Origin: Candidatus Heimdallarchaeum aukensis
Lineage (GTDB): Archaea > Asgardarchaeota > Heimdallarchaeia > Heimdallarchaeales > Heimdallarchaeaceae
Assembly (NCBI GenBank): GCA_021513695.1
Contig: CP084166.1
Coordinates: forward strand, 2,048,001-2,112,000
Reading direction: 5' to 3'
DNA length: 64,000 bases
The notes below the pieces were generated by a model. That model saw nothing but the letters and a program-made list of their open reading frames with translations. It had not been told where the DNA came from and did no database searches. Positions 6,001 through 39,425 of this stretch are shown one piece after another; positions within the stretch are counted from its first letter, which is position 1; every line of letters starts with the position of its first letter. The translations under genes were made by a program, and so were the position numbers.

Positions 6001-8641
6001 ACTAGATGAATATAGTGGTTTTAAAAGAGAAATTAACGTGTTTTGGTTTCAAATAAACAAAGATACAAATGAGGGAGAGATAGTTTATGATACATTAGAA
6101 CACTATTGTTATGAAAATGAAAAACTGAAGGAAGGAATAAAAGTTGTTGGAACGGAGGATATTTTGCAAGAGGTAGATAAGTTTCATCCAAAGAGAAATA
6201 AAATAAGAAGTAGTCAACCTATAATATCAATAGAAGCAAAGCAAAATGGAGGGAACATAGATTACGTTGTCTCAATGGATGAACAACTTCCTTTATTTAG
6301 GTTTATAGGTGGAGATTATTCAACTGCAACAGAAAAAGACATCAATTTTGCTAGTTTTCTTTACCCAAGAAAACATTCCAACGATATTGTTTTCGGATTG
6401 CAAGATGATAACTTAGATTTTATCGATGAAAAGGGTTTATGGCCTATCCATATGGGTTTAAGCCCAGGAAGGTTTACATACAACGTGCAAAACATATATT
6501 TAGATGAGATTAATTCAGCAAAAGCGTTATTGGATAAATTAGATGAATTAGATAACTTGCCTGTAGTAGAAGTTAAAACAAAGGATAATGAATATATAAC
6601 TCGACCAGCAACAGTTCAGGAAGTAAATCAACAGAGAGTATATGAGTTAATTAGATGGTACTCTACAAGTCAAGTGTATACTTATTATGTGTCTAGTTTA
6701 AATAAAGAAAATAAAGCATTTTTGTGCAGAGCATATCTAGATGATTGGAATGCAGCTAAATCGTTAGGTGAAATCATAGAAATAGCAGAAGATACTAATG
6801 GAAATCTATACCAGAAATATGGTTATGAGAATAAACAAGAATATCTAACCTTTAGAATGAATGTTATTCAAACAATAATAAACGAACAAGAACAGTTCTA
6901 TAAATACAAGTTTAAAGATGAAAGTGATTTAACAAAAGAAGAAAAGTTGGTAATATTTCTAAAAGAACAAAAAGAATTTTTTGAAAGATTACATAATGAC
7001 GCTGCTAAAATAGAGGCATTTCAAGAACCATTTTTTTCAAACTTGAGACTAGACATTAAAGAAGTCGATACATATAATGTACTTAATTATCGCAGTTTAG
7101 AATCGTCAATTGAATTACTTTTATTAAATAGATTTGACTCGTATAATAAGATACACTTATTCGAAGGAGATGTACCTTTTTCAAGAAACCCGATGAAATT
7201 CGGTTTCGATAATGTAATTGTCCAAATAGGTACGAGAGCATTCATAAACAAGGTCAAAGAAGAGGGAATATTAGATTTTGATGAAGATAAAAATTCAGTA
7301 TTAGAACTAGCTAATAAAGTATTTAAAAGAAAAACAGTTATAAAACCATTAATCCGCGGACCAATAAAAGCAAAATCAATTGCTTTTCTCCAACATGAAG
7401 AAACAATGGCTAAACTGAACAATTATAAAACATTGCAAAAAATATCCAAAGAAGAAATAAGGCTCTGGAAACTTTACAACAAAAAATTAGATAATGAAAA
7501 AGGCCATTTGACTGTAGAGCAACTATACGAAATAGAAGAAGAGTTCAACAATATAAATGGAAAAAATATAGTAGGAAAACAAGGAGCAGGGATGACAGTA
7601 ATAGAAGATGGAAACACATATGTTGTAAAAATATACAGTCTCATCAGTGATTTAAGATATAATAACAAAATTCATGCAGGTAGTGAGGCAAATAAGTATG
7701 ATATTGCAGAAAGAGTGTTGGGACTAGCACAACACATAAAGTACGTAGCAAAGGAAGGAAGAATATACATTAATTATGCAATGGCAAACATTCTTTATCT
7801 GATAAAAACACTAACAAACGGTAAAATGGAAATAGATGACGTCCAGAATCTAAGGGACCTGGGAAATCCAAAGGAATTAGAAGCTATACTAGTAAATAAT
7901 TTAGGGGAAGAAAGAACAAAAGAAATACTAAATATTTTAGAAGAAGTAACCATAAGAACGAAAAGAAAAATAAAACAAGGAAAAGATTATTCCATAGAAA
8001 ATATAGAAAAAGGACAATCGTTGGCTTTTCAAATTGGATATGTGGATCTGAAAAATATAACCCCTGAGGTAAGAGGAAAATTAAGGCTACAAGGGATGTT
8101 ATTGAGAGAAATCTTGATGTTACTGGATATAATATATGGACTATATTATACAGGAAGAAATTATATGAAACGCCTAGATATTAATTTAGCGCAAACAACA
8201 GTAATTTTCGAAAAAACAACGGAAGAAGGCAAAACAATACTAAAATTAAAAGACGTAAAAACAAGCACAGAACAAGAAATGAATGGAGAGTTCATATCAT
8301 CACTGAACGATTTCGACCAAAAAACAGCATCAATAATAGAAAAACTGGCTGAAACTAAATATTCATCAGTATTTGGACCAGAATTTATGACTAGAGAACA
8401 ATTAAGAAAATTGGTAGATGAAATAATAGAAGAATATGAGAGTATACTAAAATTGAAAATAAGAAAATTCAATGAAATATTAACTCAAGACGATATGGAA
8501 GTAGAACTAGTAGCAAAGAAATTCAAAATAGAAGAATTGCTAAAAATGCTAACACCTAAAGGATTATGGTCAATGTACGAGCAAAAGAAAAGAAATAATG
8601 AAAAAAGAGGACAAACAAAAATAACAGACTTCCTAATTTAA
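2..8641 (+). CDS. giant hypothetical membrane-associated protein, 5'-partial (ORF open to window edge)
   Basis: One uninterrupted frame. Frame 2 has no stop between nt 2 and the first ATG at 254, so the ORF continues upstream of the window. Hydrophobic helices are encoded at about 3780-4290 (FSLIVTLEFLVNLVDIGALLIDI, ELMIWIVGAAQV, LQITLGSFMIFASKMIYAI). I recognise no catalytic motif. Confidence 0.75.
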   Translation, partial: LVGVGESTEQYIATISREEKTITYSAILSSAEEQEQWKYFYISLYQLARHIPKELLVDNYSNGNKEVDLLDENYPVSGIISDAKMVVNYEGSYVEKIIQLEKGANQNLYISDLKSTITNIHSAYPYENALSSLPEEIKWKKYDVPFDGYIPLDNVYLDDFDGSSYYIYDVVVYVDASTYSKVHLTVETEGSFVLSNRYSIILQKMGFSNEVVSTVFSAQQGYTPLYLHVVFPKTAFNQNIRIQYISNGGVAISAENNREGDAISEWLISTPFYSEKNEDTVDYLNFISQVTPMEGERFEKRVVDSEGFTHTETIEFSEFTFPGFCPILDFVPHAVPSGYSVILTTTLDFAKSLNTSLVLLLNKESGITIQSLLWDETPLLYINEGVFNEIDSDLENGMITIPLNSEGLTVNSLFSPKENNPNEYGFIENDPDYNFHFSSSDPYSIKTSSVNPDSVILNNKGIHRIVIQLTFPSPYNTDFGIYLENVDDSVRTVLSPSDKAIDFHAIAQKNFIQFENDLHQPQTLAQLEKNENTLFKSRYFKDDYGQYHSYRIYSLGFSDEYTLDKGKKWKIYDGDTDDSNDVIYESTAHYNWKHVIGKMNFAIVIDEGTPQVLQLPFNFLVGYMVFCDWLDTNGDGLEDTCAPYIGLADPLDASSTYDDVKKGVVYNTEEEKKISYDVTDEQQAELKNLTVRQSLISSLSTTVITKTEETIPLSYTSDEIAAIQNNGLTLDRYLHSLIENDYLTYSEDIARVEITISSSNNKEIDLAYDYDKEILFTHSVDNATGEEEKIVYDFRYDCFSVLTPDALANDNYRVDFYTFNNKLSLYDTDLYKLKETPNSYGLLDDPQTLSPMVVLENYNYEIKETVNSLDSKDEEILNNSPTTIVDAFVQGLSLSQLSVEMYDAEIEMDYYSLDLFYSVFFNEYLTLQQFFYSQETLNNNQNYQYYPTGTIQFAKWISSILNSYIIQQSDKLFDEYQNRTSRYDSEKKAIAAMSFLLDLIIPYRGFKTYGSEPKPEETHHPRFSSYVDFKYSLVMFWGLILGNSAGCGIPKNSVSLFSESERTGKLLMIDELWDKAIKHWNLADKSRIDDPSEYLPYTDRAVVDKILFDARVRGDEAMIDWITNEDYSAEAYYMQPYGVDYSIYYWLKAFTIQQGYDPYAIKVYTIEEMNSQEREDFDENYFVIGVPVSTIEDQYLEYNWFVSLDKETRVPTSATSQLIDFIPLVFGQSSNPHIRTMMKIIKRLGNAAKGENFGYNTFSMSEFSLIVTLEFLVNLVDIGALLIDIRDAYIGATPFIRKMSLMQIPMDILDLFTPGPFSLVGNTMNKIFKSIVGDVTLEVNRITKTFNLLDIVQNFPKGEWKSIARAAGKSELMIWIVGAAQVTYRFSKLANQFYQWFFFLPQKIFMSSLQITLGSFMIFASKMIYAIRRMDIEEAMLLNIKAQKYFNQGLDDTAKMTRAILSHPKMLARFGTEELIERANIVAKYYMNIIIKKVMELEATSKAILESVEKSRFYVMMALRYATHMYMNTPGGVGIHFSPNLIDNEKETEGIRHFNTVDNILPKLEYEIAMYYWKHEYLADDEKIKEYNSEKFNFRDVESAKIHITIAFSSIAAIHSTPESFQRYKELLEYTDKRLIEIKNEKGENLEYTPIWWILHLPVDPSLQKLALSHIFDESPAVSLLLKVLMVEKGLNEDLLENNIDDIDEYNKEVHSILDQILSSSPLNISHKVFILEKDEKGNHIWKARILDLLGQSEGSLTKLRTRDEYIKWSVIGRTGIDLLGLFGSEELKNYFPKGVRNALTARNDQTSIIYELICMGLLDFRFYTDDKNVKDQLKIDFPEHDFEKEPSISIAELAKKYSKYDILELFEKSNFIRQTLISNGVDGLIHSTKIGKSLYSVKDSTGIFNKANSKNILYSVAAENAYIGHGSVIYYYDKLQGDIITDIDNKLIYNARYYDPTASKSPKPFVPGDAILLYDSNVNRYLFLRTNFPEDTMLNQNQKLDEYSGFKREINVFWFQINKDTNEGEIVYDTLEHYCYENEKLKEGIKVVGTEDILQEVDKFHPKRNKIRSSQPIISIEAKQNGGNIDYVVSMDEQLPLFRFIGGDYSTATEKDINFASFLYPRKHSNDIVFGLQDDNLDFIDEKGLWPIHMGLSPGRFTYNVQNIYLDEINSAKALLDKLDELDNLPVVEVKTKDNEYITRPATVQEVNQQRVYELIRWYSTSQVYTYYVSSLNKENKAFLCRAYLDDWNAAKSLGEIIEIAEDTNGNLYQKYGYENKQEYLTFRMNVIQTIINEQEQFYKYKFKDESDLTKEEKLVIFLKEQKEFFERLHNDAAKIEAFQEPFFSNLRLDIKEVDTYNVLNYRSLESSIELLLLNRFDSYNKIHLFEGDVPFSRNPMKFGFDNVIVQIGTRAFINKVKEEGILDFDEDKNSVLELANKVFKRKTVIKPLIRGPIKAKSIAFLQHEETMAKLNNYKTLQKISKEEIRLWKLYNKKLDNEKGHLTVEQLYEIEEEFNNINGKNIVGKQGAGMTVIEDGNTYVVKIYSLISDLRYNNKIHAGSEANKYDIAERVLGLAQHIKYVAKEGRIYINYAMANILYLIKTLTNGKMEIDDVQNLRDLGNPKELEAILVNNLGEERTKEILNILEEVTIRTKRKIKQGKDYSIENIEKGQSLAFQIGYVDLKNITPEVRGKLRLQGMLLREILMLLDIIYGLYYTGRNYMKRLDINLAQTTVIFEKTTEEGKTILKLKDVKTSTEQEMNGEFISSLNDFDQKTASIIEKLAETKYSSVFGPEFMTREQLRKLVDEIIEEYESILKLKIRKFNEILTQDDMEVELVAKKFKIEELLKMLTPKGLWSMYEQKKRNNEKRGQTKITDFLI

Positions 8642-8664: not shown

Positions 8665-8768
8665 TGGTGCGTCAACCGGGAATTGAACCCGGGCCGTCGA
8701 ATCTCTTCTTGAGGCTTCTAGACGCCATATAATGGAAGTCCGACGTACTACCACTATACTATTGACGC
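8665..8768 (-). tRNA. tRNA-Gly(UCC) with ~30-nt intron at the canonical 37/38 site, CCA encoded
   Basis: Hand-folded cloverleaf. Acceptor GCGTCAA/TTGACGC, D arm GTAT-AGTGGTA-GTAC, anticodon stem TCGGA/TTCGA with loop CT-TCC-A, T arm CCGGG-TTCAATT-CCCGG, then ACCA. Length is 104 nt, so about 30 nt is inserted after position 37. Confidence 0.85.
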
Positions 8769-13434: not shown

Positions 13435-15549
13435 GTGACTAAGCTTGAAAAACTATTAAGGCCTGAAAGCGTAGTAATTATTGGCGCTTCTTCTGATGAA
13501 AAGAAAGTTGGTTATGCAGCATTAAAAAATATGATTGATTGTGGGTTCAAAGGAAGGTTATATGCTGTTAATCCCAAAGCTGAACGCTATAATTATGAAA
13601 TTTTGGGTGTCAAGTGTTATTCTCGTGTAAGCGATATCGAAGATACAATTGATCTAGCAGTAATTTGCATTCCTGCACGGTTTATTCCTGCAACTATTGA
13701 AGAATTAGGTGGAAAGAAAGTCCCATATGTTGCTGTAATAACTGCTGGTTTTAAAGAAGTTGGAGAAGAAGGAGCAAAACTTGAAAAGGAACTAGTTGAA
13801 CTTGTGAAAAAATACAACATGAGAATGGTAGGGCCGAATATTTTAGGTATAATAGATACTATTGCACCTATAAATGCAAGTTTTGCAGAACAAACTCCAA
13901 TAAGAGGAGATATTGCATTTATATCCCAAAGTGGAGCTCTTTTAACGGGTATTCTAGATTGGAGTAGAGCAGAGGGAATAGGCTTCTCATCTTTTATAAG
14001 TATAGGTAATAAAGCAGATCTGGACGCAACAGACTTTATTGAAGCTTTAGGTGAGGATAAGCATACAAAAGCAATATTGGCTTATTTGGAAAGTATAAAT
14101 CGAGGGGAAGAATTCATTAAGATTTGTTCTGAAGTAACGAGGACAAAACCTGTCCTTATTATTAAATCAGGAAGATCAAAAGCTGGAGCAAAGGCAGCAT
14201 CTTCACACACAGGAAGTATGGCTGGTGCAGATACAACTTATGATGTTGCTTTTGAAAAATGTGGTGTAATAAGAGCTGATGATGCTGAAGAATTGTTTGA
14301 TATGGCATTTTCATTCAGTTGTATGCCTATACCAAAAGGAAATAGAATAGTAATAATTACTAATGCTGGTGGACCTGGAATTCTGGCAACTGATGCTGCC
14401 GAAAGAGAAGGGTTAGAATTAGCAGAGATATCCCCCGAGTTTGAGGCAAAATTAAGAGAATTTCTACCTCCTGCATCAAGTTTCAAAAATCCGATAGATG
14501 CCTTAGGAACAGCACAAGGAGAGGATTATGGACGGATAATAGAACTAGCATGTAAAGAAGAAAATATAGATGGAATAGTCGTTATTTTAACGCCACAAGC
14601 TATGACCGAAGGACAAGAAACTGCAGAAAGAATTGTGGAGATGCATGAAAAATATCCTGAAAAACCTATCATTGCAGTTTTTATAGGGGGAGAATCATTA
14701 GGCCCCGCAATATATTATTTGAAGAAACACAAAATACCCACATTTACACTTCCAGAGAGAGGGGTTGGAGCTATGGCCGCTATGGCAAGATATGCTAAAA
14801 TAAAAAACAGGCCAGAAGATGAACCTATACCTGAAATAGAAGTAGATAAACAGAGAGTAGAAGAAATATTCAAGAAAGTAAGGGCTGAAGGTAGAAAAAC
14901 GTTATATGGCACAGAAGCAAAAGAAGTGGTAAAGGTATATGGAATAACTACTCCTGCGGCTAAATTAGCAAAAACAAGCGATGAAGCTAAACAAATCGCT
15001 AAAGAACTAGGTTTCCCTGTAGTTATGAAGATAACAGGGGAAGGAATTATGCATAAAAGTGACATCGGAGGAGTAAAAGTAGGTATAAAAAATGAAGAAG
15101 AAGTAGAAAAAGCTTTTACTGAAATAATGGAAAATGTAAAGAAACATTATCCAAACGCAGAAAGCCTAATAGAAGTGCAATATATGGCTCCTCTAGGAAG
15201 AGAATTAATAACAGGAATATTACAAGATCCTCAATTTGGTCCACTAGTAATGATAGGATTAGGAGGAATATATACCAACTTCCTTAAAGATGCAGCTTTC
15301 GGTTTAGCTCCACTAAGCTACAAAGAAGCTGAAATTGTGTTAAGAAAAACAAAATCTTACACATTGTTAAAAGGAGTAAGAGGAGAAAAACCTTCAGATA
15401 TAAAGGCAATAGTTGACACTATGGTGAAAATATCACTGCTTGCAAGAGATTTCAAAAACGATATTAAAGAGATGGACGTAAACCCATTCTTCGCTTATGA
15501 AGAAGGAAAAGGAATCTCAGCAGTAGATGTAAAAATAGTACTTAATTAA
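13435..15549 (+). CDS. acd: ADP-forming acetyl-CoA synthetase, fused alpha-beta
   Basis: N-terminal CoA-binding and succinyl-CoA-ligase-like domains (VVIIGASSDEKKVGY, FISQSGAL, SSHTGSMAG) are followed by a C-terminal ATP-grasp domain (FPVVMKI..HKSDIGGV). GTG start. Confidence 0.88.
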   Translation: MTKLEKLLRPESVVIIGASSDEKKVGYAALKNMIDCGFKGRLYAVNPKAERYNYEILGVKCYSRVSDIEDTIDLAVICIPARFIPATIEELGGKKVPYVAVITAGFKEVGEEGAKLEKELVELVKKYNMRMVGPNILGIIDTIAPINASFAEQTPIRGDIAFISQSGALLTGILDWSRAEGIGFSSFISIGNKADLDATDFIEALGEDKHTKAILAYLESINRGEEFIKICSEVTRTKPVLIIKSGRSKAGAKAASSHTGSMAGADTTYDVAFEKCGVIRADDAEELFDMAFSFSCMPIPKGNRIVIITNAGGPGILATDAAEREGLELAEISPEFEAKLREFLPPASSFKNPIDALGTAQGEDYGRIIELACKEENIDGIVVILTPQAMTEGQETAERIVEMHEKYPEKPIIAVFIGGESLGPAIYYLKKHKIPTFTLPERGVGAMAAMARYAKIKNRPEDEPIPEIEVDKQRVEEIFKKVRAEGRKTLYGTEAKEVVKVYGITTPAAKLAKTSDEAKQIAKELGFPVVMKITGEGIMHKSDIGGVKVGIKNEEEVEKAFTEIMENVKKHYPNAESLIEVQYMAPLGRELITGILQDPQFGPLVMIGLGGIYTNFLKDAAFGLAPLSYKEAEIVLRKTKSYTLLKGVRGEKPSDIKAIVDTMVKISLLARDFKNDIKEMDVNPFFAYEEGKGISAVDVKIVLN

Positions 15550-15645: not shown

Positions 15646-16335
15646 ATGGTGCTTTTAGAGATTCTTGTACTCCTTGTAGGATATATCTGTGGCTCGATTC
15701 CCGTAGGTTTCTTAATAGGAAAAATAGGTTATAATATTGATGTAAGAAAACATGGTAGTGGAAATATAGGAATGGCAAATGTAATGCGTCTATGCGGAAA
15801 AAAAGCAGGAATAATGACAATGATAGGTGATATGGTAAAAGGAACAATTGCCGTTCTAAGTGGGAGAATATTAATATGGACAAAAAATTTTGAAGGATTA
15901 GGAAAAATAGGACAAGTAGAATTAACAAATGAAGGGTTATTTCTGTCATTAATAGTCTTTACAACAATAATAGGGCATAGTTTTCCAATATGGTTAAAGT
16001 TTAAAGGAGGGAAATCAGCAAGTGTGGGAGGAGGAGCAATATTAGGAATAAACCCAATAGCATTTGTAATAATAATGAGTTTATGGATTGTTATACTTAA
16101 AAAAACTAAATATACTTCACTTTCAAATTTAGTAGCAGGTATGCTCTATCCTCCATTGTTATGGGTGTTCGCGGGAACTGATCCTTTCTTTAACAACAAT
16201 TGGCAAGCAGCAATAGTAGGAGCAATATGTTTGTTGTTTGTAATCTGGAGACATAGGGAAAATGTGTCAAGGTTAATAAAAGGAACAGAAAGAAAAATTG
16301 GACAAAAAGAAAAAATAGAAGAGAAAAAAGACTAG
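15646..16335 (+). CDS. plsY: PlsY-family glycerol-3-phosphate acyltransferase homologue
   Basis: GSIPVGFLIGK, HGSGNIGMANVMR and GHSFPIWLKFKGGKSASVGGG are the PlsY/YgiH signature blocks. The protein is polytopic membrane. Confidence 0.85.
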   Translation: MVLLEILVLLVGYICGSIPVGFLIGKIGYNIDVRKHGSGNIGMANVMRLCGKKAGIMTMIGDMVKGTIAVLSGRILIWTKNFEGLGKIGQVELTNEGLFLSLIVFTTIIGHSFPIWLKFKGGKSASVGGGAILGINPIAFVIIMSLWIVILKKTKYTSLSNLVAGMLYPPLLWVFAGTDPFFNNNWQAAIVGAICLLFVIWRHRENVSRLIKGTERKIGQKEKIEEKKD

Positions 16336-19178: not shown

Positions 19179-19658
19179 TAAAACGAAAATCTCAATAAAT
19201 ATTTATAAATTTTATCTATTAAGAAGTATTATGACTAATTAGAACTATCTTGATAATACTCTAAAAGACTAGTTACTAAAAGTAAACAATAAACATAAAA
19301 AACAACCACACCCTAGAAAACTTAGAAAGAGAGTAGTTAAAAAGTACAGAATGGAGAGGAAGTAACCTAAACCGCAGTATAGTAAATATTGAGTAGAAAA
19401 ACCATCTATAAGCGAATTAAAAAGATAAGGAAGATACTAATAAAGAATGGTGTGTAAACACTCGGATGTATCAAAGAAGGGAAAGCGGAAGATCCACCAT
19501 AATTATCACTGATTTAATATCCTGTACTCAGTAGGACACCTAAACCTCTCAAACGGGTATCGAAGATGACAAAAGATTCTTCCATGAGAAGGTAATCCAT
19601 TTTGTTAGTAATTGACCTCTTAATCTTAATTCTCTATAAACTAATTAAAATAGGAACT

Positions 19659-19797
19659 TGGTGCCCCGACCGGGAACCTCAAAAAAAATGCCTCAACATT
19701 TTTCTTTTTGAACCCGGGTCTGCGGATATTCCTGCCACATCCGCGAACTTTAGCATGTGAAAGTCCGCAATGATTGGCCGAGCTACACCATCGGGGC
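19659..19797 (-). tRNA. tRNA-Glu(UUC) with two introns (anticodon loop and T loop), CCA encoded
   Basis: 5' GCCCCGATGGTGTAGCTCGGCCAATCAT is the typical archaeal tRNA-Glu start. Anticodon stem GCGGA/TCCGC with loop CT-TTC-A, then a ~30-nt insert. T arm CCGGG-TTCAA[~31 nt]TT-CCCGG. Acceptor 3' TCGGGGC-ACCA. Total 139 nt. Confidence 0.8.
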
Positions 19798-19999
19798 ATA
19801 GAGTTTTTGTCTTGTTGAAATGATAGAATTAAATTGATTTTTAATATTTTTGTTTGTCGTGTCCTCTTATTAATAATGATTTTCTTTATATTCTGTTATT
19901 ATCTTACAGAGATAAATTTAAAAAATAAATGTTAACTCGTTTCTTAATCCATATAGAAAAACTGCTCGTTTCCTACTTTGTTCATTTGCTTAAAATTTC

Positions 20000-20127: not shown

Positions 20128-22881
20128 ATGGTTGCTTTTTCTCCTACTTTTTCTGTTATCGATTCTTTCTCTTTTCTTCACGACCCTCAATTTGTTTTTT
20201 TACTTCAGACTTTTATTGATTCTTCCCCTGACTTTTTTTCGTTTCTTTCTCTTCTTTCTTCCTCTTCTCCCTCTTCTCTTTCTTCTTTTGTAAGGGACAT
20301 TTTTTTACTTATTTCTTTTGATGATCCTTTTTCTCTTTCTTCTTCCTCTTTTCATTTTTTTGATTCTCATTTTAATTGGAAATCTTTTCTTTCCTTTTTC
20401 CTTGATTCTTTTTCTTCCCGTAAATTTTCTCTTTGCAATTTTTCTTTATTTTATGCTCATTTTTCTTTTTTGCATTTTTCTATTCCTAATTTTTTATCTG
20501 ATTTTGCATTCTTTTTTTTATCTGATTTAGATTTTAATTTTTTATCTTCTTCCTTTTTCAGTTCTTTTTTCTCTTTTGAATCTTTTTATGATTTTTTCTT
20601 TTCTTATTTTGATTCTTTTTTACCTTCCTATCGTCTCCTTATGCGTCATCGTTTTAATTCTTCTCCTAACCATTTTTTTCCTCCTTTTCTTCCATTCCTT
20701 CGTTCTGAAGAGGTTAGCTCTTATTTTAAGTCCTTTCTGTATATTTGTGGCTTTGATAAATCTGTTTTCGGTTTTGGTTCTTCTCGTGCTAAGGTTGATC
20801 CTCGTCAATTTGCTGAGTCTTTTCAAACTTCTTGGATTAAATTGCACTTTCATTTAGACAAAATGCGTTTTCCTTTTACTCTTTCTTCTACTCGTGTTCT
20901 TTCTCTTTATCATCCTGGTCGTTATGTTTCTTCTGTTAATCCAAGTAATGGTTTTGACGATCTAATTGTTTTTTCTTCCTCCTCTTCCATTCCATCCTCT
21001 CTTTCCTCTTCTCCTTCTTCTCTTTCTTCCTTTTCTTCTCCCGTTTCTCCCTGCTTTACTATTTGTGTTATTGAGCAAAAAATGAACCATTTAGACGTTA
21101 AGCGTTTAGATAGTCCTTCTTCCTCTTCCGATTTTACGCGTTATCTCTCTTACCTTGCTAAAACCCACTTAAATCCCTTTATTCTTCTTTTACAAGCGTT
21201 TCATTATCCTGAAAAAGATAGACTTAAATTGTCCTCTCTATTGTATGATCGCTCTTTAACTTATTCTAACTCTGTTGGATTAGACTTTTTACGTAAAATC
21301 ACGAATGGTGATTTTCTATCTTCTCTTAAACTAATTGAACCTTCTTTAGATGATCAAACTATCAATAATATTCTTCGGGGTTCTATTATCCAGCACCAGC
21401 TTATTTCTTTGATTAAGTCTGGTTTTTGTTTTAAATTGGCTTTTGTTGATGGTTATTATACCGTTAAAAAGAGGTATCCTGGTGACCTGGTCTCTTCTGT
21501 TATATGTTATTATAATTGTTTAAATGGTTCTTGCGTTGAAATCCATTTTCCTTCGTCGCTATTTGAAATAAGAATAGATTCTAGGGGTCATTTTCTTGTA
21601 CCTCAGTACTCTGAATCTCAGATTTCTTCATATGCAAAGACAGAAAACGAGCTTATGGCTTATCAGGAACTCAACAATCTATTTAACACTTTACGGAGCG
21701 ATATGATTTTTAATGTAAATATTTTGTCTCTCCCTCCTTTTGAAATTGTAAAAAAAGTTAATTTATATCAAAAAAAGATTCTCTTTTTTTTACTTAATTC
21801 TAGACGAATTGCTGATTTAAGTATCTTTAACGATGGTTTTGTTAAATCTTATTTGGAAATTTTTACTTTACCAAAAACAGCTCATCGGATCAAGAGATAC
21901 TTATCCTATATACACGATTCACTTTCAATTTTTCCCTATTCGTTTTATCAGCAGTGGAATGCTCCTTTTGGCGATAGACTAAAAAACATGTTCTCTGGTT
22001 CTTTTAGTCGTGATACCCTTCTTTGTAAGCGTTTTAAAGAAAAGCTTCTTGAGTTTATTTTATCCTCTGATTATGATTTTTCCGAAATGCCTTTAGAATT
22101 TATTGAAACTAAGTTACGTCATTCACCTGATATTCAAATTTTTTTAGATTGCTATTTTAGTCAGTTTGCTCTTTATCCTGACGGTAATTTTTTACGGTTT
22201 AAACATAATAAAATTTCTTTGAAAGCTCTTGCTTTTTGGGATGAGACCAACAATCAATGGTTTTCGCTTAACAAGAAGCGTTTTTACATTTTATTGAACT
22301 TTGAAGATATTTTAGCTAATATAAGTAAGGAAGTGTCTTTTAAAGTAACAAAAAATCTTTTGCTTTTTCCTATTAAATTTAGTTTAAATAAACGCACAGG
22401 GCAGTTATCAGCTCTATTTAATACTGATTTTACTAACACTGAAGTAAACAGAATTTGGGTTGCATATCTTAAAAAATTGAAAGGAATGGATCTTTCCTTT
22501 GAGATTTTGTCCTCTTTTTCTTATGGTCAACGAAATAAGCGGAGTGGAATTGATTTATTCTATAACTGTAACCAAAAAAAGCTTTCAATATTGTTGGCAA
22601 TATTATCAGAAACTATTAAGTTGTGGAGTTTGGTTAAAGAACTTGTCCTTAACGTTGTTTATAAAAAATTAGATTCTGAAATGGATAAAATTATCTTATC
22701 TACCAAAGGAGATAAAATTGTTCTCAATGGCAAGCAATACAAAATGGTCTTACTCAATTACAATGAAAGTAATTCAAGGGTTAGGTGGTCGTTTAAACAC
22801 TACCTATTTCCTGTTGAAGGAACAATTATTGATGATTTTGTTAAAAAATGTTATTCTATTTATACTGATTTATTTTCTTAG
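20128..22881 (+). CDS. orphan protein of the tRNA-Leu element (about 917 aa; N-terminal third F/S/L-rich low complexity)
   Basis: First ATG after the tRNA in the long frame. The track start 19978 reads through the tRNA gene and is rejected. The stop lies 5 nt before attR. The C-terminal ~600 aa has ordinary composition. I recognise no recombinase or Rep motif. Confidence 0.55.
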   Translation: MVAFSPTFSVIDSFSFLHDPQFVFLLQTFIDSSPDFFSFLSLLSSSSPSSLSSFVRDIFLLISFDDPFSLSSSSFHFFDSHFNWKSFLSFFLDSFSSRKFSLCNFSLFYAHFSFLHFSIPNFLSDFAFFFLSDLDFNFLSSSFFSSFFSFESFYDFFFSYFDSFLPSYRLLMRHRFNSSPNHFFPPFLPFLRSEEVSSYFKSFLYICGFDKSVFGFGSSRAKVDPRQFAESFQTSWIKLHFHLDKMRFPFTLSSTRVLSLYHPGRYVSSVNPSNGFDDLIVFSSSSSIPSSLSSSPSSLSSFSSPVSPCFTICVIEQKMNHLDVKRLDSPSSSSDFTRYLSYLAKTHLNPFILLLQAFHYPEKDRLKLSSLLYDRSLTYSNSVGLDFLRKITNGDFLSSLKLIEPSLDDQTINNILRGSIIQHQLISLIKSGFCFKLAFVDGYYTVKKRYPGDLVSSVICYYNCLNGSCVEIHFPSSLFEIRIDSRGHFLVPQYSESQISSYAKTENELMAYQELNNLFNTLRSDMIFNVNILSLPPFEIVKKVNLYQKKILFFLLNSRRIADLSIFNDGFVKSYLEIFTLPKTAHRIKRYLSYIHDSLSIFPYSFYQQWNAPFGDRLKNMFSGSFSRDTLLCKRFKEKLLEFILSSDYDFSEMPLEFIETKLRHSPDIQIFLDCYFSQFALYPDGNFLRFKHNKISLKALAFWDETNNQWFSLNKKRFYILLNFEDILANISKEVSFKVTKNLLLFPIKFSLNKRTGQLSALFNTDFTNTEVNRIWVAYLKKLKGMDLSFEILSSFSYGQRNKRSGIDLFYNCNQKKLSILLAILSETIKLWSLVKELVLNVVYKKLDSEMDKIILSTKGDKIVLNGKQYKMVLLNYNESNSRVRWSFKHYLFPVEGTIIDDFVKKCYSIYTDLFS

Positions 22882-22886
22882 GCTTG

Positions 22887-22925
22887 GAGAGTTCGAATCT
22901 CTCTCCCCGCACCATTTCTTCTTTT
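22887..22925. repeat. attR core (39 bp)
   Basis: Identical copy of 20057-20095. Confidence 0.9.
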
Positions 22926-22968
22926 CTTTTGTTTTCTTTTTCGTTTTGTTTCGTTTTGTTTATTTTTT

Positions 22969-23010
22969 GATAGTGATAGTGATAGTTACACCTTTTTTGA
23001 TAGTGATAGA
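22969..23010. repeat. GATAGT hexamer array (3 copies, 12-nt spacer, 2 copies)
   Basis: TTTTTTGATAGTGATAGTGATAGTtacaccTTTTTTGATAGTGATAGA, read directly from the sequence. Confidence 0.85.
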
Positions 23011-23012
23011 CT

Positions 23013-23708
23013 TTATTTTTCTCTTATTGTTCCGTAAATTCTCATATATCTTGGTTTTATTTTTTTTCTTTTGATGTATCTTTTTATTATCGTCACATCT
23101 ACTATTATTTTTACTCCTATCATTATCATCAATATTGTTTCTATTGTTCCATTGAATACCAGTAGATAAATTAGGAATTCTTCATCTCCTGCTGCATTAG
23201 CTATTGAAGCTATTACTGAAACAATTATTGAATAGAATCCGAATATTTGGTATAATATACTTCCCACTTTAATATCTGTTATTTTTTTTATTCTTGTTAG
23301 CATTAGATCTATTTTTCTGAATCCTATTGCTCTTGACGCTAGACTTATTAGAATCGCAAAGCTTCCGAAAACCACACTTCCTATAGTGAATGGTTTTAAT
23401 ATTTCTCCTATTGCATAAATCAACAAATATGTTCTTCCTTGCATTCCTTCCTTTCTGACGTGGTCTTTAAAGTATAGGTCTGCTATTCCTCCGAAGCTTA
23501 ATGCTATTGGTATTAAGCTTAGAGCTATTACTGCAGCAAAAATATAATCAAAAAACCAATTTACTGCTCTTAAGTATTGTATTGTCCTGTTCGACAGATT
23601 TATTGCTGCTGCTATTGTAAACAAAATGCTTCCCGTTATTGCTAAAAAAGAAAATTTGTTTATTTCTGTGTTAAATATTTTCTTCTGCTTTTCTTCGTTT
23701 GAGACCAT
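23013..23708 (-). CDS. hypothetical polytopic membrane protein (paralogue of 27285-27950)
   Basis: About 6 TM. It aligns by eye with the 27285-27950 product, for example FGFYSIIVSVIASIANA..LIYLLVFNGTIETILMIMIGVKIIVD against FGSYRIVVAIVVGIAANV..LYLIAVNATLEAIFTFIIGIKLLID. Confidence 0.65.
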   Translation of the reverse strand: MVSNEEKQKKIFNTEINKFSFLAITGSILFTIAAAINLSNRTIQYLRAVNWFFDYIFAAVIALSLIPIALSFGGIADLYFKDHVRKEGMQGRTYLLIYAIGEILKPFTIGSVVFGSFAILISLASRAIGFRKIDLMLTRIKKITDIKVGSILYQIFGFYSIIVSVIASIANAAGDEEFLIYLLVFNGTIETILMIMIGVKIIVDVTIIKRYIKRKKIKPRYMRIYGTIREK

Positions 23709-23723
23709 GCTTAAACCCTTTTT

Positions 23724-24593
23724 TTATACTTCTGATGCTAAGAGAAAGTCTGCTTCCTTTGCGTTAAATGAGCTTCTCACAAACGGAGCTGAAGCTACGA
23801 ACTTAAATCCCAGCTCATAACCTATTTTTTCATATTCCTTAAAAGTATCTGGGTGAACGTATTCTTCTATTTCTAAGTTTGAGCTTGGTGGTTTCAGATA
23901 TTGTCCTATAGTTAATATGTCACAATCTACTTTTCTTAAATCCTTTAATACTTGTATTACTTCTTCTTTTGTTTCTCCTAGTCCAACCATTATTCCTGAT
24001 TTAGTTAATATTTCCTTACTATATTCTTTGACCATCTTCAGTACTTTTAATGATATTTCATAATTTGCTTGTGGTGTGACTTTTTTATATAATCTTGGTA
24101 CTACCTCTACATTGTGATTAATTATGTTTGGTTTTGCTTCTATTATTGTTTTAATGCTCTCCTCTTTTCCTTTCATGTCAGGTATAAGTAGTTCTATTAT
24201 CAAATCTTCTTTATATTCTCTTAATTTTCTTGTTATTTCGGCGAAATGTGCAGCTCCTCCATCTGGTAAATCATCTCTTGTTACTGATGTGACTACTACG
24301 TGCTCTAAATTTAGTTTTTTAGCTGCTTCAACAATATGTTTTGGTTCCATGGGATCTAGTGGTTGTGGTCTTCCTGTTGTAATATCGCAAAATTTACAAT
24401 TTCTTGTACAGACATTTCCCATCACTAGAAATGTTGCAGTTTTATTTACAAAGCATTTTCCTATATTTGGGCACATTGATTCTTCGCATACTGTATGTAG
24501 ATGCAGTTCTCTCATAAGTTTTTGAACTTGTTTTATCTCTTCCCTCTGCACCTTCCCAATTCTTAACCATTCTGGCTTTCTTACATTTGGCAT
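23724..24593 (-). CDS. lipA: lipoyl synthase
   Basis: Auxiliary cluster CEESMCPNIGKC and radical-SAM cluster CTRNCKFC. The length and remaining sequence are typical of LipA. Confidence 0.92.
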   Translation of the reverse strand: MPNVRKPEWLRIGKVQREEIKQVQKLMRELHLHTVCEESMCPNIGKCFVNKTATFLVMGNVCTRNCKFCDITTGRPQPLDPMEPKHIVEAAKKLNLEHVVVTSVTRDDLPDGGAAHFAEITRKLREYKEDLIIELLIPDMKGKEESIKTIIEAKPNIINHNVEVVPRLYKKVTPQANYEISLKVLKMVKEYSKEILTKSGIMVGLGETKEEVIQVLKDLRKVDCDILTIGQYLKPPSSNLEIEEYVHPDTFKEYEKIGYELGFKFVASAPFVRSSFNAKEADFLLASEV

Positions 24594-24617
24594 TATTACT
24601 CACTTTTCTTTATTGTT

Positions 24618-25349
24618 TTATTGTTTTTCTATTTCTCTTTCTCTTTCTTTTTTTTCTATTTTTGTCAATAAATCTCTTGGTGAAAGATCCTTAATTTCTA
24701 TGTTAAATACTTTAGTAAAATTGTTTTTAAATTTCTCATACACTTCACGCATATCAACGCTTCTATTTAGAACTTCCTCGAGTGATATGGGTATAAAATC
24801 TGTTATTCCGCATGGAATTATCATTTGAAAATGACTCATATTTGTATTTACATTCAGTGCTAATCCGTGTGATGTTATATGCTTTGATGCTCTCGCTCCG
24901 ACAGCAGCTATTTTGGATATTTGACCATTATGTTCTATCCACACTCCAGGATATTCTTCTCTTCTGAAACCTTTTATGTTGTATTCCATTATCGTTTGAA
25001 TTACTACTTCTTCCATTTTGTGAACGAACTCGGGTATAGTGATTTTCAATTGTATTAAATCTAATAAAAAGTAAGCTACTAATTGTCCTGGGCCGTGATA
25101 TGTTACTTTTCCACCTCTTCTAATTTCAACAACTTCAATTCCTTCTTTTTCCAACACCTCATCACTAACAAGAATTTCACTTCTCTTTCCTTGTTTCCCT
25201 AAAGTAAAAACTGGTGGATCATGTTGTAACAATAACAGAAAATTGTCGTATTGTCTATCTTCCTCTTTTATGTTTCTTATTTTATTCTGTATCTCTAATG
25301 CGCTTAAATAATCGATAGTATCGTATTTTATAACAAAACATTCACTCAT
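24618..25349 (-). CDS. lipB: octanoyltransferase (lipoate-protein ligase B)
   Basis: RRGGKVTYHGPGQLVAY and KIAAVGAR ... HGLALNV motifs. The gene is adjacent to lipA. Confidence 0.9.
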   Translation of the reverse strand: MSECFVIKYDTIDYLSALEIQNKIRNIKEEDRQYDNFLLLLQHDPPVFTLGKQGKRSEILVSDEVLEKEGIEVVEIRRGGKVTYHGPGQLVAYFLLDLIQLKITIPEFVHKMEEVVIQTIMEYNIKGFRREEYPGVWIEHNGQISKIAAVGARASKHITSHGLALNVNTNMSHFQMIIPCGITDFIPISLEEVLNRSVDMREVYEKFKNNFTKVFNIEIKDLSPRDLLTKIEKKEREREIEKQ

Positions 25350-25519
25350 TAAGTTATTTTTTTCTTATTCTTTTTACAGATTTCGATTGGACGATACCCC
25401 TAATATTTGTGATTAAAACTCTCTTTCTTTTATTTTTGTCCTTTTTTAAAGAAACACTAAATTCAAAAACTTGAAAAAGGTACTAATCAACGCTCCTATG
25501 AGATAAAAAGGTGAACTCA

Positions 25520-25786
25520 ATGAGCGTAAAAGTTTACAAAATTACTGGACATTATAAGAAGGGCAAACAAAGGATAAAATTCAGCAAGTTTGTTCGTGCG
25601 TTAAATCCACAAGATGCTTTGGAAAATATTTATGCAATTATGGGTAGTAAACATCACGTAAAGAGAACTGAGATCGTTCTTACTGAAGATAGCATTCGTG
25701 AAATTACTGATCCCAATGAAATAACAGATCAGTATGTTCATACATTCACAACTGACGATAACCTAAAAATCCCAAAAAAGGCTTAG
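25520..25786 (+). CDS. rplX: 50S ribosomal protein LX (eL20/L18Ae family)
   Basis: MSVKVYKITGHYKKGKQRIKFSKFVRALNPQDALE is typical of archaeal LX. It lies in the conserved LX-prefoldin alpha-FtsY order. ATG 25520 is preferred to the track GTG 25511. Confidence 0.8.
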   Translation: MSVKVYKITGHYKKGKQRIKFSKFVRALNPQDALENIYAIMGSKHHVKRTEIVLTEDSIREITDPNEITDQYVHTFTTDDNLKIPKKA

Positions 25787-25787
25787 T

Positions 25788-26225
25788 GTGATAAGATTGG
25801 CAAGTAATAAACCCCAAATTGGCCAGGAAGAATTAAGTAAGTTACTTTATTCTGCTCAACAACTAGAGCAACAAGCTGGTCAATATCAGAAACAGCTAGA
25901 GGTCTTTCAAAGTTATTTAGCTGATATGAATAATGCTGAAAAAGCAATGAAAGAGCTCAAGAATATCTCTGATGAAAAAAATATTCTCGTTCCAATAGGT
26001 GCAGGTAATTTCATTCATGCATCAGTAAAGAAAACAGAGAAAGTTATTTCCTCTTTAGGTGCAGGAGTACATGCAGAGATACCAATCGACCAGGCATTAG
26101 CTAACATAGAAAAAAGAAAAACTGATGTAAACAATCAAATCTCACAAGTACAGGCAAATTATAACCAAGTAATTGAGAGACTAAAAGAAATCGATTCTTT
26201 TGTTAGAATGATACAACAAGGATAA
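25788..26225 (+). CDS. pfdA: prefoldin alpha subunit
   Basis: About 145 aa with coiled coil, beta hairpins (ILVPIGAGNFIHASV) and a second coiled coil. Conserved position before ftsY. Confidence 0.8.
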   Translation: MIRLASNKPQIGQEELSKLLYSAQQLEQQAGQYQKQLEVFQSYLADMNNAEKAMKELKNISDEKNILVPIGAGNFIHASVKKTEKVISSLGAGVHAEIPIDQALANIEKRKTDVNNQISQVQANYNQVIERLKEIDSFVRMIQQG

Positions 26226-26260
26226 TCTTTCTTTACGGGGGAATTTTTTTGTTCAAAAAT

Positions 26261-27163
26261 ATGAAAAAAAGCCTTTCTTCTCTTTTGAAGAAGATCACTA
26301 TTGCCGAACTTAACCAAAAGACTATAAAAAAGGTAATTCACCCCCTTAAGGACATACTAATACAAAATGAAGTAGCGGTGGTAACAGCTGATAAAATTTG
26401 TGAAAGTGTTTCAGATAAGTTACTAAATGTTGAGTATAAACGTATGTCTTCTCCAAAAAGCCTTATCCTAGAAGCTTTACGCTCTTCATTATTAGAAATT
26501 TTACAACCAGAAGAGACAATTGATTTATTGAGTTTAGTAGAAGAATATAAAAAGAAAAAACAGCCTTTAGTCATTGCCTTCTTTGGAATAAATGGCGTTG
26601 GTAAAACTCTTTCAATAGCTAAATTAGGCTATTACTTGAAAAAAAATGACATTTCTTCTGTTTTTGCTGCGTCAGATACCTTTAGAGCTGGAAGTATACA
26701 ACAATTGGAGCAACATGCAAAAAAAGTAGGGGTAAAAATTATTTCTCAAACATATGGTTCTGATGCTGCAGCAGTAGCTTTTGATGCAGTATCACATGCT
26801 TCAGCTAAAGGAATTGATGTAGTTCTAATTGATACGGCAGGAAGGATGGAAACAAATAAGAACTTAATGGCTGAATTACAGAAATTAGATAGAGTTGTTG
26901 AACCTGATTTGAAGATTTTTGTAGGTGATGCTTTAACAGGTAATTCTTTAGTATCTCAAGCAGAATTATTTAATAGTAAGATAGGTATTGATGCTTCAAT
27001 TATTAATAAGATGGATGCAGATGTTAAAGGAGGAGCAACAATCTCTGTTGTGCATGCTACAAGGAAACCAATTTTATTTATAGGCGTAGGACAAAAATAT
27101 AATGACTTAAAACCATTTATTCCTGAACAAATAATCAAGAATGTTCTTCCAGATAAAATTTGA
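26261..27163 (+). CDS. ftsY: signal recognition particle receptor FtsY
   Basis: SRP-GTPase motifs FFGINGVGKT, DTFRAG, DTAGR and NKMD. ATG 26261 is preferred to the track TTG 26249. Confidence 0.92.
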   Translation: MKKSLSSLLKKITIAELNQKTIKKVIHPLKDILIQNEVAVVTADKICESVSDKLLNVEYKRMSSPKSLILEALRSSLLEILQPEETIDLLSLVEEYKKKKQPLVIAFFGINGVGKTLSIAKLGYYLKKNDISSVFAASDTFRAGSIQQLEQHAKKVGVKIISQTYGSDAAAVAFDAVSHASAKGIDVVLIDTAGRMETNKNLMAELQKLDRVVEPDLKIFVGDALTGNSLVSQAELFNSKIGIDASIINKMDADVKGGATISVVHATRKPILFIGVGQKYNDLKPFIPEQIIKNVLPDKI

Positions 27164-27284
27164 ATTGAACCTTTTCACCTTTTACACTTGGAGTTCTATA
27201 GATAACTTGATTATTCACTATCGTAATGTTTAAAGAACTGATTTTTTGTTTGAAAACTACTAACGATAAGGTTTGTGAATTAAA

Positions 27285-27950
27285 TTGGACGTTTCTCACG
27301 AAGCATTACTACCGTTAAAAATAGAATATCATTTTAAGGAAACATTCATTTGGAGCTTTTCAGGTGTAATTTTGTTATTGCTTTCTTCATTATTCAACAT
27401 CATAGACCTTTTAGTTACAAGATGGGCTTATGTCGGATGGTTCCGACAATACCTAATAAGATCAACGATGTCTATTAGCTTTCTTCCCCTTGCAATAGGT
27501 TTTGGGATGATTTTTTCTAACTTTTTTGTAGGTTTTATAAGGCGAGAAGGAGAATTAGCAAAAAATTGGCTGATTGTTTATAGTATAGCAGAAATGGTCT
27601 CGCTTTTTACATTAAGTACAATAGTATTAGGTGCGTTTACTCTGCTAGCAATTATTTTCGGTAAATTGATAGCATTTATTTACTTAGACAGAGTTTTTTT
27701 GAAACTTAAAAAAAATGATGAGGTAAAGATAAATTTTAGTTTAATTTATCCGCTTTTTGGCTCCTACAGGATAGTAGTAGCTATAGTTGTAGGAATAGCA
27801 GCAAATGTAAGAGATTATGAAACAGAGCTATATTTGATAGCTGTAAATGCAACACTAGAAGCAATTTTTACCTTTATTATAGGAATAAAGTTGTTAATAG
27901 ACCTACTTAAAATTCGTTCTTATATAAATAGTAAAAGAAAGAAAAAATGA
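27285..27950 (+). CDS. hypothetical polytopic membrane protein (paralogue of 23013-23708)
   Basis: See 23013-23708. TTG start as given in the track. Confidence 0.6.
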   Translation: MDVSHEALLPLKIEYHFKETFIWSFSGVILLLLSSLFNIIDLLVTRWAYVGWFRQYLIRSTMSISFLPLAIGFGMIFSNFFVGFIRREGELAKNWLIVYSIAEMVSLFTLSTIVLGAFTLLAIIFGKLIAFIYLDRVFLKLKKNDEVKINFSLIYPLFGSYRIVVAIVVGIAANVRDYETELYLIAVNATLEAIFTFIIGIKLLIDLLKIRSYINSKRKKK

Positions 27951-27967
27951 AAAATAAAATCTTTGAA

Positions 27968-28936
27968 TCACTCAAATACCTTTTTCACAGGTTCAAAGAT
28001 TTTTGCTAATTCGGTAGCAATAACTTTCTTTAAATCTAGAGGATGAAGATTTCCCTCAACAAAGGTTTTTTCTAATTCTTCATAATTATTGAAAGAAATA
28101 TCTCCGCCAAATTTTTCGGGTCTTTCAACAGTTAATGATTTAATGTTCGGAAAAATAATCAATTTTGCAATCTGAAGAACAGGATTGTCTTCAACGATTT
28201 TAGCAGGACAATATGCCTTCTTAAGTTTGCGTTGAATATCCTCCTTGGAATCTATGACAGATATCATCGATTCTGGGATTGAAGAAGACATCTTTGATCC
28301 TGGGCCCATGAGGGAAGAAATAAGAGGAGTGTGAATACATACGGGAGGTTTTAACTTTAATTCACTAGGGAAAACTTCTCTAGCTAACATGTGAATCTTT
28401 CTTTGCTCCATTCCTCCTTGTGCAGCGTCAAGATCAAGATATTTAATATCTAATACTTGCATAAGTGGATAAATCATCTGAGATACGGTAGCATTTTCAA
28501 TATCTCGAGCAATTTCTTGCATAGATCGTAAACCACGGTTAATAGTTACACGCAAAGCTAGACGGTGTAAGTCTTGAATGTATTCCTTGTCATATTGAAA
28601 CTCGCTACCAAGAACGATTTCAGGATTTTTAAGGCCTAAGGCACGCATAGCTTTTTCCCAGAGAACGCAATTTTCACTTATTTCCTCTTCAGTACCTTTT
28701 TTGTTCAAAAGTGCATGAACGTCAGCTAGTAAAATCTTAATATGAAAACCGGCACTTTCAAGATCTTTTAACTTCATTACAGTAACTGCATGACCAAGAT
28801 GAACAGGACCACTAGGTTCGTAGCCAGTATAAATGTTAGGTGAATCTTTAGTCTCTAAAAGCTCTTTTAATTCCTGTTCAGTAACAATTTCAGTAGTATT
28901 ATACTTAATAAGATCAATTTTTTTTGCAGTGTCCAT
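27968..28936 (-). CDS. tyrS: tyrosyl-tRNA synthetase (archaeal type)
   Basis: Class I motifs YTGYEPSGPVHLGH (HIGH) and KMSSS (KMSKS). About 320 aa, typical of archaeal TyrRS. Confidence 0.88.
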   Translation of the reverse strand: MDTAKKIDLIKYNTTEIVTEQELKELLETKDSPNIYTGYEPSGPVHLGHAVTVMKLKDLESAGFHIKILLADVHALLNKKGTEEEISENCVLWEKAMRALGLKNPEIVLGSEFQYDKEYIQDLHRLALRVTINRGLRSMQEIARDIENATVSQMIYPLMQVLDIKYLDLDAAQGGMEQRKIHMLAREVFPSELKLKPPVCIHTPLISSLMGPGSKMSSSIPESMISVIDSKEDIQRKLKKAYCPAKIVEDNPVLQIAKLIIFPNIKSLTVERPEKFGGDISFNNYEELEKTFVEGNLHPLDLKKVIATELAKIFEPVKKVFE

Positions 28937-35024: not shown

Positions 35025-35135
35025 GGGCTGGTAGTTCAGAGGAAGAACGCTTCCTTGGCATGGAAGAGGCCGGGGGTTCAATTGATTTTTCGTGCGCTGT
35101 GTGCGCCGAATCTGAAAATCCCCCCCAGTCCACCA
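35025..35135 (+). tRNA. tRNA-Ala(GGC) with ~35-nt intron in the T loop, CCA encoded
   Basis: Acceptor GGGCTGG/CCAGTCC includes the G3:U70 alanine identity pair. Anticodon arm CTTCC-TTGGCAT-GGAAG. T arm GGGGG-TTCAA[35 nt]AT-CCCCC, then ACCA. Confidence 0.8.
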
Positions 35136-39331: not shown

Positions 39332-39425
39332 TGATTGTACAAAATTGGACTAATAAATTAATTTTTGTTTACTTAACTATTTATTCCGAAGTTTTATATT
39401 AACATTGGTAAATGTCGTCACGCAA

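Follow-up and report, generated by a model that had tools for sequence, protein, structure and literature searches.

A tRNA-Glu(UUC) gene of a Heimdallarchaeum-like Asgard archaeon with predicted introns in the anticodon loop and the T loop

Short bulge-helix-bulge (BHB) introns in the T loop, placed between tRNA positions 59 and 60, have been described in ARMAN-2, where both strict and relaxed motifs occur at this site and the 59/60 intron of tRNA-Cys is cleaved in vitro (2011, PMC3239211). Genes with one to three BHB introns, which also occupy non-canonical sites, are reported for Thermoproteales and other TACK archaea in the work of Sugahara et al. (2007, 2008) as cited in PMC4090602 and PMC3239211. 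Among Asgard archaea, four genomes, including Heimdallarchaeota AB_125, combine non-canonical or multiple tRNA introns with an (αβ)2 splicing endonuclease (EndA) that carries an L1 loop and has broad specificity; moreover, the tRNA sets of Asgard genomes look incomplete, which hints at disrupted genes that have escaped detection (Kaneta et al. 2018, PMC5829648). In Atabeyarchaeia and Freyarchaeia, 92-95 % of the tRNA genes are interrupted, often at non-canonical positions and more than once (Valentin-Alvarado et al. 2024, PMC11291895). Introns may also differ between close relatives, as in Caldiarchaeum subterraneum, where closely related genomes are distinguished by the second intron of tRNA-Thr(GGU), a difference interpreted as evidence that an intron was acquired in a short time (Sugahara et al. 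2012, PMC3293823).

The gene discussed here, tRNA-Glu(UUC), lies in a 64-kb stretch of DNA (the window, i.e., the whole stretch that was analysed) and very probably represents a functional gene of a Heimdallarchaeum-like Asgard archaeon with two predicted, protein-spliced introns of the EndA type. It shares with ARMAN-2 a short BHB intron in the T loop at exactly 59/60 (PMC3239211). However, ARMAN-2 belongs to a DPANN phylum and has an ε2 enzyme, whereas here the 59/60 intron accompanies an anticodon-loop intron in tRNA-Glu and, by virtue of a close relative, can be dated as probably recent. The combination of relaxed and strict motifs recalls the multi-intron genes of Thermoproteales and other TACK archaea, whose hosts, according to the same citing papers (PMC4090602, PMC3239211), have (αβ)2 EndA; the host in this case, in contrast, is an Asgard archaeon with a G+C content of 33 %. 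The sequence-only reading of this DNA had regarded multiple and non-canonically placed introns as a trait known mainly from Thermoproteales-type archaea. This setting must be abandoned, as the host is an Asgard archaeon and such introns have been published for Asgard genomes (PMC5829648, PMC11291895). Those two studies offer statistics, whereas the window provides one described gene, and the window genome, with introns in four of the eight tRNA genes that the window holds, seems far less intron-rich than Atabeyarchaeia and Freyarchaeia (92-95 %). A tRNA-Glu precursor with more than one BHB intron is also known from Methanopyrus kandleri and has been used as a substrate for EndA, but that organism is a euryarchaeon whose (αβ)2 EndA lacks the L1 loop (PMC5829648). 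That close relatives differ in a second intron recalls the tRNA-Thr(GGU) of Caldiarchaeum; there, however, the gain is tied to a 1.8-kb mobile element and a tRNA fragment, and no such element flanks the Glu gene of the window.

Read by hand, the whole gene occupies 139 nt (19659-19797, minus strand, as do all of its features given below) and comprises three exons, two introns and an encoded CCA. In the 5'-to-3' direction it begins with GCCCCGA, UG, the D arm GUGUAGCUCGGCCAAUCAUU, GCGGA and CUUUCAC, followed by a 30-nt insert, and continues with UCCGC, AGAC, CCGGG, UUCAAA, a 31-nt insert, U, CCCGG, UCGGGGC, A and CCA. The acceptor stem is thus GCCCCGA/UCGGGGC, with A73 preceding the encoded CCA; the anticodon stem is GCGGA/UCCGC, with a 7-nt loop CUUUCA(C) that presents the anticodon UUC; and the T stem is CCGGG/CCCGG. 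Exon 1 corresponds to tRNA positions 1-38 (19757-19797, or ending at 19758 if the first intron follows position 37). Exon 2 covers positions 39-59, that is, the 3' anticodon stem, the variable loop AGAC, the 5' T stem and UUCAAA (19707-19726), and exon 3 consists of U60, the 3' T stem, the 3' acceptor strand, A73 and CCA (19659-19675, with CCA at 19659-19661). Judged from the sequence only, a possible TATA box, TTTAATTC, lies 29-36 nt upstream of position 1 (19826-19833), and a run of four T residues 9 nt past CCA (19647-19650) might serve as a terminator. A sigma-70 promoter scan was set aside as irrelevant to an archaeon.

Standard tRNA finders do not recognize this gene. On the raw window, ARAGORN called four other tRNAs and missed tRNA-Glu(UUC), and the Rfam tRNA model returned six tRNAs and missed it both at the gathering threshold and at E<=10. 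When both inserts are removed, the remaining 78-nt sequence is called by ARAGORN as tRNA-Glu(ttc) with a normal cloverleaf, and removal of a single insert yields no such call; a tRNA-Pyl call, obtained in ARAGORN intron mode with the T-loop intron alone removed, was discarded as spurious. The identity of the gene is supported by the UUC in the 7-nt loop, by orthology and by the intact cloverleaf. The sequence-only reading, which had proposed a 139-nt gene interrupted twice by inserts of about 30 and 31 nt, is borne out in this respect by the call that appears only after double removal and by insert sizes of 30 nt for the anticodon loop and 31 nt for the T loop. It had also expected BHB motifs at both pairs of junctions: these are strict (hBHBh') at the T loop, whereas the anticodon-loop junctions form no strict motif and adopt a relaxed form only.

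Orthologues were obtained by a scan for the 5'-exon pattern in one genome per GTDB species, which yielded 14 orthologous loci, 11 of them labelled Heimdallarchaeota or Heimdallarchaeum, one Kariarchaeota and two "uncultured archaeon". All 14 share the D arm GGUGUAGCUCGGCCAAUCAU, which was required by the search pattern, and their acceptor and T arms are nearly identical, with differences at few acceptor-stem positions. Between the window gene and the 11 closest orthologues, the 5' exon shows no variation up to CUUUCAC. All eight tRNA genes of the window (at 8668, 18201, 19659, 20000, 31608, 35025, 54888 and 62911) encode the 3' CCA, which is not encoded by the distant orthologues L004, L007 and L013.

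The T-loop insert (intron 2, 31 nt, AAGAAAAAUGUUGAGGCAUUUUUUUUGAGGU, 19676-19706) appears as a clean gap in the alignment with five orthologues, in which the window differs by a 31-nt insertion between TTCAAA and TCCCGG. The precursor was scanned for every arrangement of helix, 3-nt bulge, 4-bp helix, 3-nt bulge and helix, and across its whole length the top strict hBHBh' is, by far, that of the T-loop junction (19670-19717). Its outer helix h is the 5-bp T stem itself (19713-19717 paired with 19670-19674). In the central helix H, UUCA of the T loop (19709-19712; tRNA positions 54-57) pairs with UGAG of the intron (19678-19681) at four of four positions; the bulges are AA^A on the 5' side (19706-19708) and GU^U on the 3' side (19675-19677); and the inner helix h', AGAAAAAUG/CAUUUUUUU, extends over 9-10 bp (19697-19705 paired with 19682-19690). 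An equally good structure, with H at 4/4 and h' of at least 9 bp in the same register, was reached by only 9 of 200,000 composition-preserving shuffles of the insert. EndA cleaves two nucleotides into each bulge, a rule that involves the A-I pair and the geometry of the BHB. By this rule, intron 2 is placed at 59/60 (19676-19706) and the spliced T loop would read UUCAAAU. Indeed, the predicted cuts recreate the orthologous sequence TTCAAATCCCGG exactly, and TTCAAATCCCGG is read in all 14 orthologues. The earlier description, TTCAA[...]TT, was right in placing the insert between CCGGG and CCCGG and wrong by one base at its boundary, the true arrangement being TTCAAA[31]T; as originally drawn, splicing would yield a T loop UUCAAUU, compared with UUCAAAU in the orthologues.

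The anticodon loop holds intron 1 (30 nt, AUGCUAAAGUUCGCGGAUGUGGCAGGAAUA, 19727-19756 in the 38/39 register and 19728-19757 in the 37/38 register). Introns of approximately 17-31 nt occupy the anticodon loop in 14 of 14 orthologues and are clearly homologous in the 11 closest; as it is common to all 14, intron 1 is old. Neither register provides a strict 3-4-3 hBHBh' at its junctions. In the 38/39 register a relaxed BHB can be drawn (19722-19768), in which the outer helix is the anticodon stem (19764-19768 paired with 19722-19726), the 3' site is a 1x2 internal loop with C32 (19763) opposite UA (19727-19728), and the central helix joins UUUC (19759-19762) to GGAA (19729-19732), giving H at 4/4. 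The 5' bulge is ACA (19756-19758), and a 5-bp h' is formed in the window by UGCUA (19751-19755) and UGGCA (19733-19737). Relaxed motifs of this kind are known among the substrates of (αβ)2 and ε2 EndA (PMC3239211).

The sequence-only reading had called this a canonical intron located after position 37. An anticodon-loop intron is indeed present; its position, judged from the motif and from loop invariance, is more likely to be 38/39 than 37/38. Among 12 clade sequences (the window gene and its 11 closest orthologues), H is complete at 4/4 in 10 with the 38/39 register, and h' measures 2-5 bp, whereas with 37/38 H reaches 3/4, C32 faces A and h' is absent from all 12. Furthermore, 38/39 would produce the invariant mature loop CUUUCAC, which the distant L004, L007 and L013 also reach, with canonical motifs, whereas 37/38 would leave position 38 variable (A or U). 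It is this better motif together with the invariant mature loop that favours 38/39. Excision at 37/38, leaving a mature loop CUUUCAA instead of CUUUCAC, is less probable, but it is the most serious of the alternatives considered in this analysis: 37/38 is by far the commonest intron position in archaea (PMC4090602, PMC3239211), and in this register the 3' site becomes a proper 3-nt bulge (AUA) beside an intact 5-bp anticodon stem.

Intron 1 also contains a segment, AAAGUUCGC (19743-19751), that is the complement of tRNA positions 27-35 and could form a 9-bp helix in competition with the anticodon stem. This 9-nt segment is conserved in orthologues L005-L017, in which it reads AAAGUCCGC, or AAAGUUCGC in the window. 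Both the unconstrained minimum-energy fold and the RNAalifold consensus of the anticodon arm favour the AAAGUUCGC helix, not the BHB. In the minimum-energy fold, the intron is paired with positions 29-35. With the cloverleaf stems enforced, however, the fold lies within 0.7 kcal/mol of the minimum, and because the gap is so small, the unconstrained fold was not counted against splicing. In the complete genome of Ca. Heimdallarchaeum endolithica PR6, G27-C28 is changed to A-U, and positions 42-43 have followed while the intron segment has not; compensation in the anticodon stem, with none in the intron segment, points to selection on the cloverleaf stem. A nested-intron or two-step reading of the 30-nt insert, suggested by a duplicated GCGGA and an AAAG:CUUU pairing, was rejected, as no BHB supported it.

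The age of intron 2 can be approached through PR6, which is 95.4 % identical to the window over positions 22763-28097 (5.3 kb). The tRNA-Glu locus is syntenic between the two, with flanks that align directly, and in the complete PR6 genome the tRNA-Glu(UUC) pattern is matched once, at this syntenic locus. Proteins identical to those of the window were found only in the Logan assemblies of runs SRR15988954, 56, 58 and 59. The PR6 gene (L005, 6873-6990, plus strand) has the anticodon stem AUGGA/UCCAU, compared with GCGGA/UCCGC in the window (19722-19768); the two anticodon arms differ by six substitutions, including positions 26 and 44, with pairing kept, and it is PR6 that departs from the stem form shared by the window and the other Heimdall species. 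The T-loop insert was not found in any of the 14 Heimdall or Kari orthologues. Since it is missing from all of them, including PR6, in which the neighbouring genes are about 95 % identical, intron 2 is probably a recent gain in the window lineage. Its source is less apparent: the sequence occurs once in the window, a search for a donor or copy in the window and 31 loci returned only chance matches to A/T runs, and sequence searches gave no evidence of relocation from another tRNA gene.

Position 59/60 is interrupted in other genes as well. A hidden tRNA-Ala(GGC) gene with G3:U70 and an encoded CCA (35025-35135, plus strand) was located in the window by means of a G+C-rich island, and it carries a 36-nt intron at 59/60 within a strict hBHBh' (35083-35118, plus strand). 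ARAGORN missed it, and its Rfam score of 22.8 bits falls short of the gathering score (29). The same Ala intron, with diverged sequence, is present in a related strain (L031, run SRR15988956) identified via an exact match of the LSm protein; the tRNA-Ala(GGC) of L031 also shows a compensatory change in the anticodon stem. When orthologues of tRNA-Ala were sought via RuBisCO homologues, synteny was not conserved, and a contig matching at 96 % did not extend far enough. A metagenome scan for the same T arm with an insert of 10-40 nt yielded contigs L019 and L020, in which the neighbouring RqcH protein is closest to Thorarchaeota proteins. The tRNA-Glu(UUC) genes of L019 (13898-14010, minus strand) and L020 have a 29-nt intron at 59/60 and no anticodon-loop intron, and that of L024 (about 14580-14690, minus strand) has a different 29-nt intron at this position, whereas the syntenic Thorarchaeota loci L021, L023 and L026 have none. 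These Thorarchaeota genes sit downstream of a conserved QRPTase gene and are polymorphic for the 59/60 intron.

The introns of tRNA-Ala(GGC), L031, L019, L020 and L024 are all set in strict BHBs. L024 has the T loop UUCGAAU and, on the intron side of the central helix, CGAA in place of UGAG; here A57:U has been replaced by G57:C, a compensatory change. Across five distinct 59/60 introns, 98.5 % of BHB-core cells are paired and six pairs are changed on both sides, a result matched by 0 of 500 shuffles; the cores were picked by the BHB scan of this analysis itself, and the intron positions were fixed by gaps in orthologues.

The Thorarchaeota genes raise the alternative of an ancestral T-loop intron that has disappeared from PR6 and the remaining Heimdall lineages. 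The occurrence of tRNA-Glu(UUC) introns at the same 59/60 site speaks for this view, as does their patchy distribution within Thorarchaeota. However, with 14 of 14 Heimdall or Kari species lacking the insert, one would have to assume that it was precisely and independently lost many times. Apart from the stretch that has to pair with the T loop, the Heimdall and Thor introns have no sequence in common, and the DNA searched contained no relative of the insert. An ancestral intron is therefore unlikely, and recent gain in the window lineage is the better account.

Intron 2 has one feature that could hamper expression. A tract of eight U residues in the 3' strand of h' (19681-19688) is a potential archaeal termination signal, as archaeal RNA polymerase terminates at oligo-T (PMC2253867, PMC8716108), and it could end transcription before exon 3 and thus lower the amount of full-length precursor. 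Within the other seven tRNA genes of the window, the longest T runs are at most 3 nt, except for 5 nt in the Ala intron; runs of T4-T7 lie downstream of six of the eight genes, and the U8 tract is as long or longer. Inside window ORFs, sense-strand runs of at least eight T residues are depleted (5 vs. 22 runs of at least eight A residues). The tract fits a young intron that has not yet been cleaned by selection, and it also lends some weight to the view that the 31-bp insertion is damage such as the remains of an insertion event, the locus a young pseudogene or a poorly expressed gene, and GAA decoded by another copy. In addition to this possible stop, no orthologue has the insert, not even that of PR6 with its identity of about 95 % in the adjacent genes, and standard tools give no call. 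These points do not make a disabled gene probable: the chance of it appears slim, given the perfect 3-4-3 BHB in the register that restores the ancestral T loop (9 in 200,000 shuffles), exon positions that are intact throughout, an intron of the same kind and position in the window tRNA-Ala that persists between strains, and the single tRNA-Glu(UUC) pattern match of PR6, which is syntenic. The five sense-strand T8 runs inside window ORFs likewise indicate that T8 is no absolute stop. That the insert arose in assembly or sequencing is scarcely credible: nothing favours this beyond the general risk of metagenome-derived sequence, the geometry of the insert is functionally precise, and the identical two-insert gene occurs in an independent Logan assembly (L018, run SRR15988954, in which the contig begins 5 nt inside the gene), so it is not the product of a single assembly.

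With the gene taken as functional, and probably as the only copy, a course of maturation may be proposed. The gene would be transcribed as a 139-nt precursor with two introns, in which the 31-nt intron would pair with the T loop and stack on the T stem, forming a strict 3-4-3 BHB whose geometry on the T arm would be that of a canonical intron on the anticodon stem. The splicing endonuclease would cut two nucleotides into each T-loop bulge, and ligation would restore UUCAAAU. Intron 1 offers a good helix-bulge-helix at its 5' site and a 1x2 internal loop at its 3' site, and would likely be excised at 38/39 to leave CUUUCAC. By analogy with archaeal tRNA splicing, (αβ)2 EndA would make the cuts, an RtcB-type ligase would join the exons and the ends would be processed, and the introns would leave the precursor, probably in circular form. 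Directly computed in this analysis were the BHB motifs, the fact that the mature sequence of the orthologues is restored exactly, and the distribution of the introns across the phylogeny. As regards the enzyme, the 49 ORFs of the window with a length of at least 70 aa include no match to EndA (tRNA_int_endo). The enzyme assumed here is the (αβ)2 EndA that Kaneta et al. (2018, PMC5829648) report for Asgard archaea, Heimdallarchaeota AB_125 among them, with an L1 loop that confers broad specificity; an intron at 59/60 has been cleaved in vitro by a broad-specificity EndA (PMC3239211). It had been suggested from the two inserts that the endonuclease must tolerate relaxed BHB motifs; the strict T-loop BHB does not call for this, whereas the relaxed anticodon-loop motif does.

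A more far-reaching view, at present speculative and rather doubtful, is that Asgard archaea may still be gaining introns in a structure-directed manner, with site 59/60 of the T loop as a hot spot. It is equally conjectural that a BHB intron entered tRNA-Glu within about 5 % of genome divergence and that the introns of tRNA-Ala and of the Thorarchaeota genes are independent entries, and that the site is used because the T arm, with its 5-bp stem and 7-nt loop, mimics the anticodon arm, an explanation that deserves no greater confidence. Such introns might have entered through a reversed EndA/ligase reaction and subsequent reverse transcription, or in some comparable way. If true, the window genome and PR6 would provide a "before and after" snapshot of the origin of an archaeal tRNA intron, in which the fresh intron 2 still bears an unpurged, terminator-like U8 tract.

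The surroundings of the gene deserve a brief comment. An intron-containing tRNA gene (8668-8768, minus strand; anticodon UCC by eye) adjoins a giant ORF of 2,795 aa (254-8641, plus strand) that has no Pfam match and ends 27 nt from the tRNA gene. Giant "aloposon" genes integrated beside tRNA genes have been described in Ca. Heimdallarchaeum, and the giant ORF next to a tRNA gene in the window resembles them (PMC8813620). A 110-nt patch of about 70 % G+C, compared with 33 % for the genome (57883-57994, plus strand), lies inside an ABC permease ORF (56672-58393) and is probably coding, as it falls within the Pfam BPD_transp_1 match. The window also encodes an Arf-family small GTPase (61884-62822, plus strand), a ZPR1 zinc-finger protein (39405-40028, plus strand) and a PlsY-type acyltransferase (15646-16335, plus strand), which are typical Asgard gene content and aided its placement, together with LSm, prefoldin, L18Ae and form III RuBisCO, at a G+C content of 32.7 %.

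Two of the eight tRNA genes in the 64-kb window, Glu(UUC) and Ala(GGC), are missed by ARAGORN and fall below the Rfam threshold. As both escape standard finders, a routinely annotated Heimdallarchaeum genome would seem to lack a tRNA that decodes GAA, although GAA is probably used more often than the other Glu codon, given the high A+T content. Such omissions fit the incomplete-looking tRNA sets of Asgard archaea (PMC5829648). The T-loop intron, in turn, offers a well-dated case for the gain of archaeal tRNA introns and for the recurrence of certain sites, given the unrelated introns at the same 59/60 position in another tRNA and in another Asgard class. A tRNA gene with two introns belongs to a well-described class of features and leaves the known mechanism unchanged; the particular value of this tRNA-Glu(UUC) gene lies in the annotation gap that it exposes and in a datable recent gain at a recurrent site.
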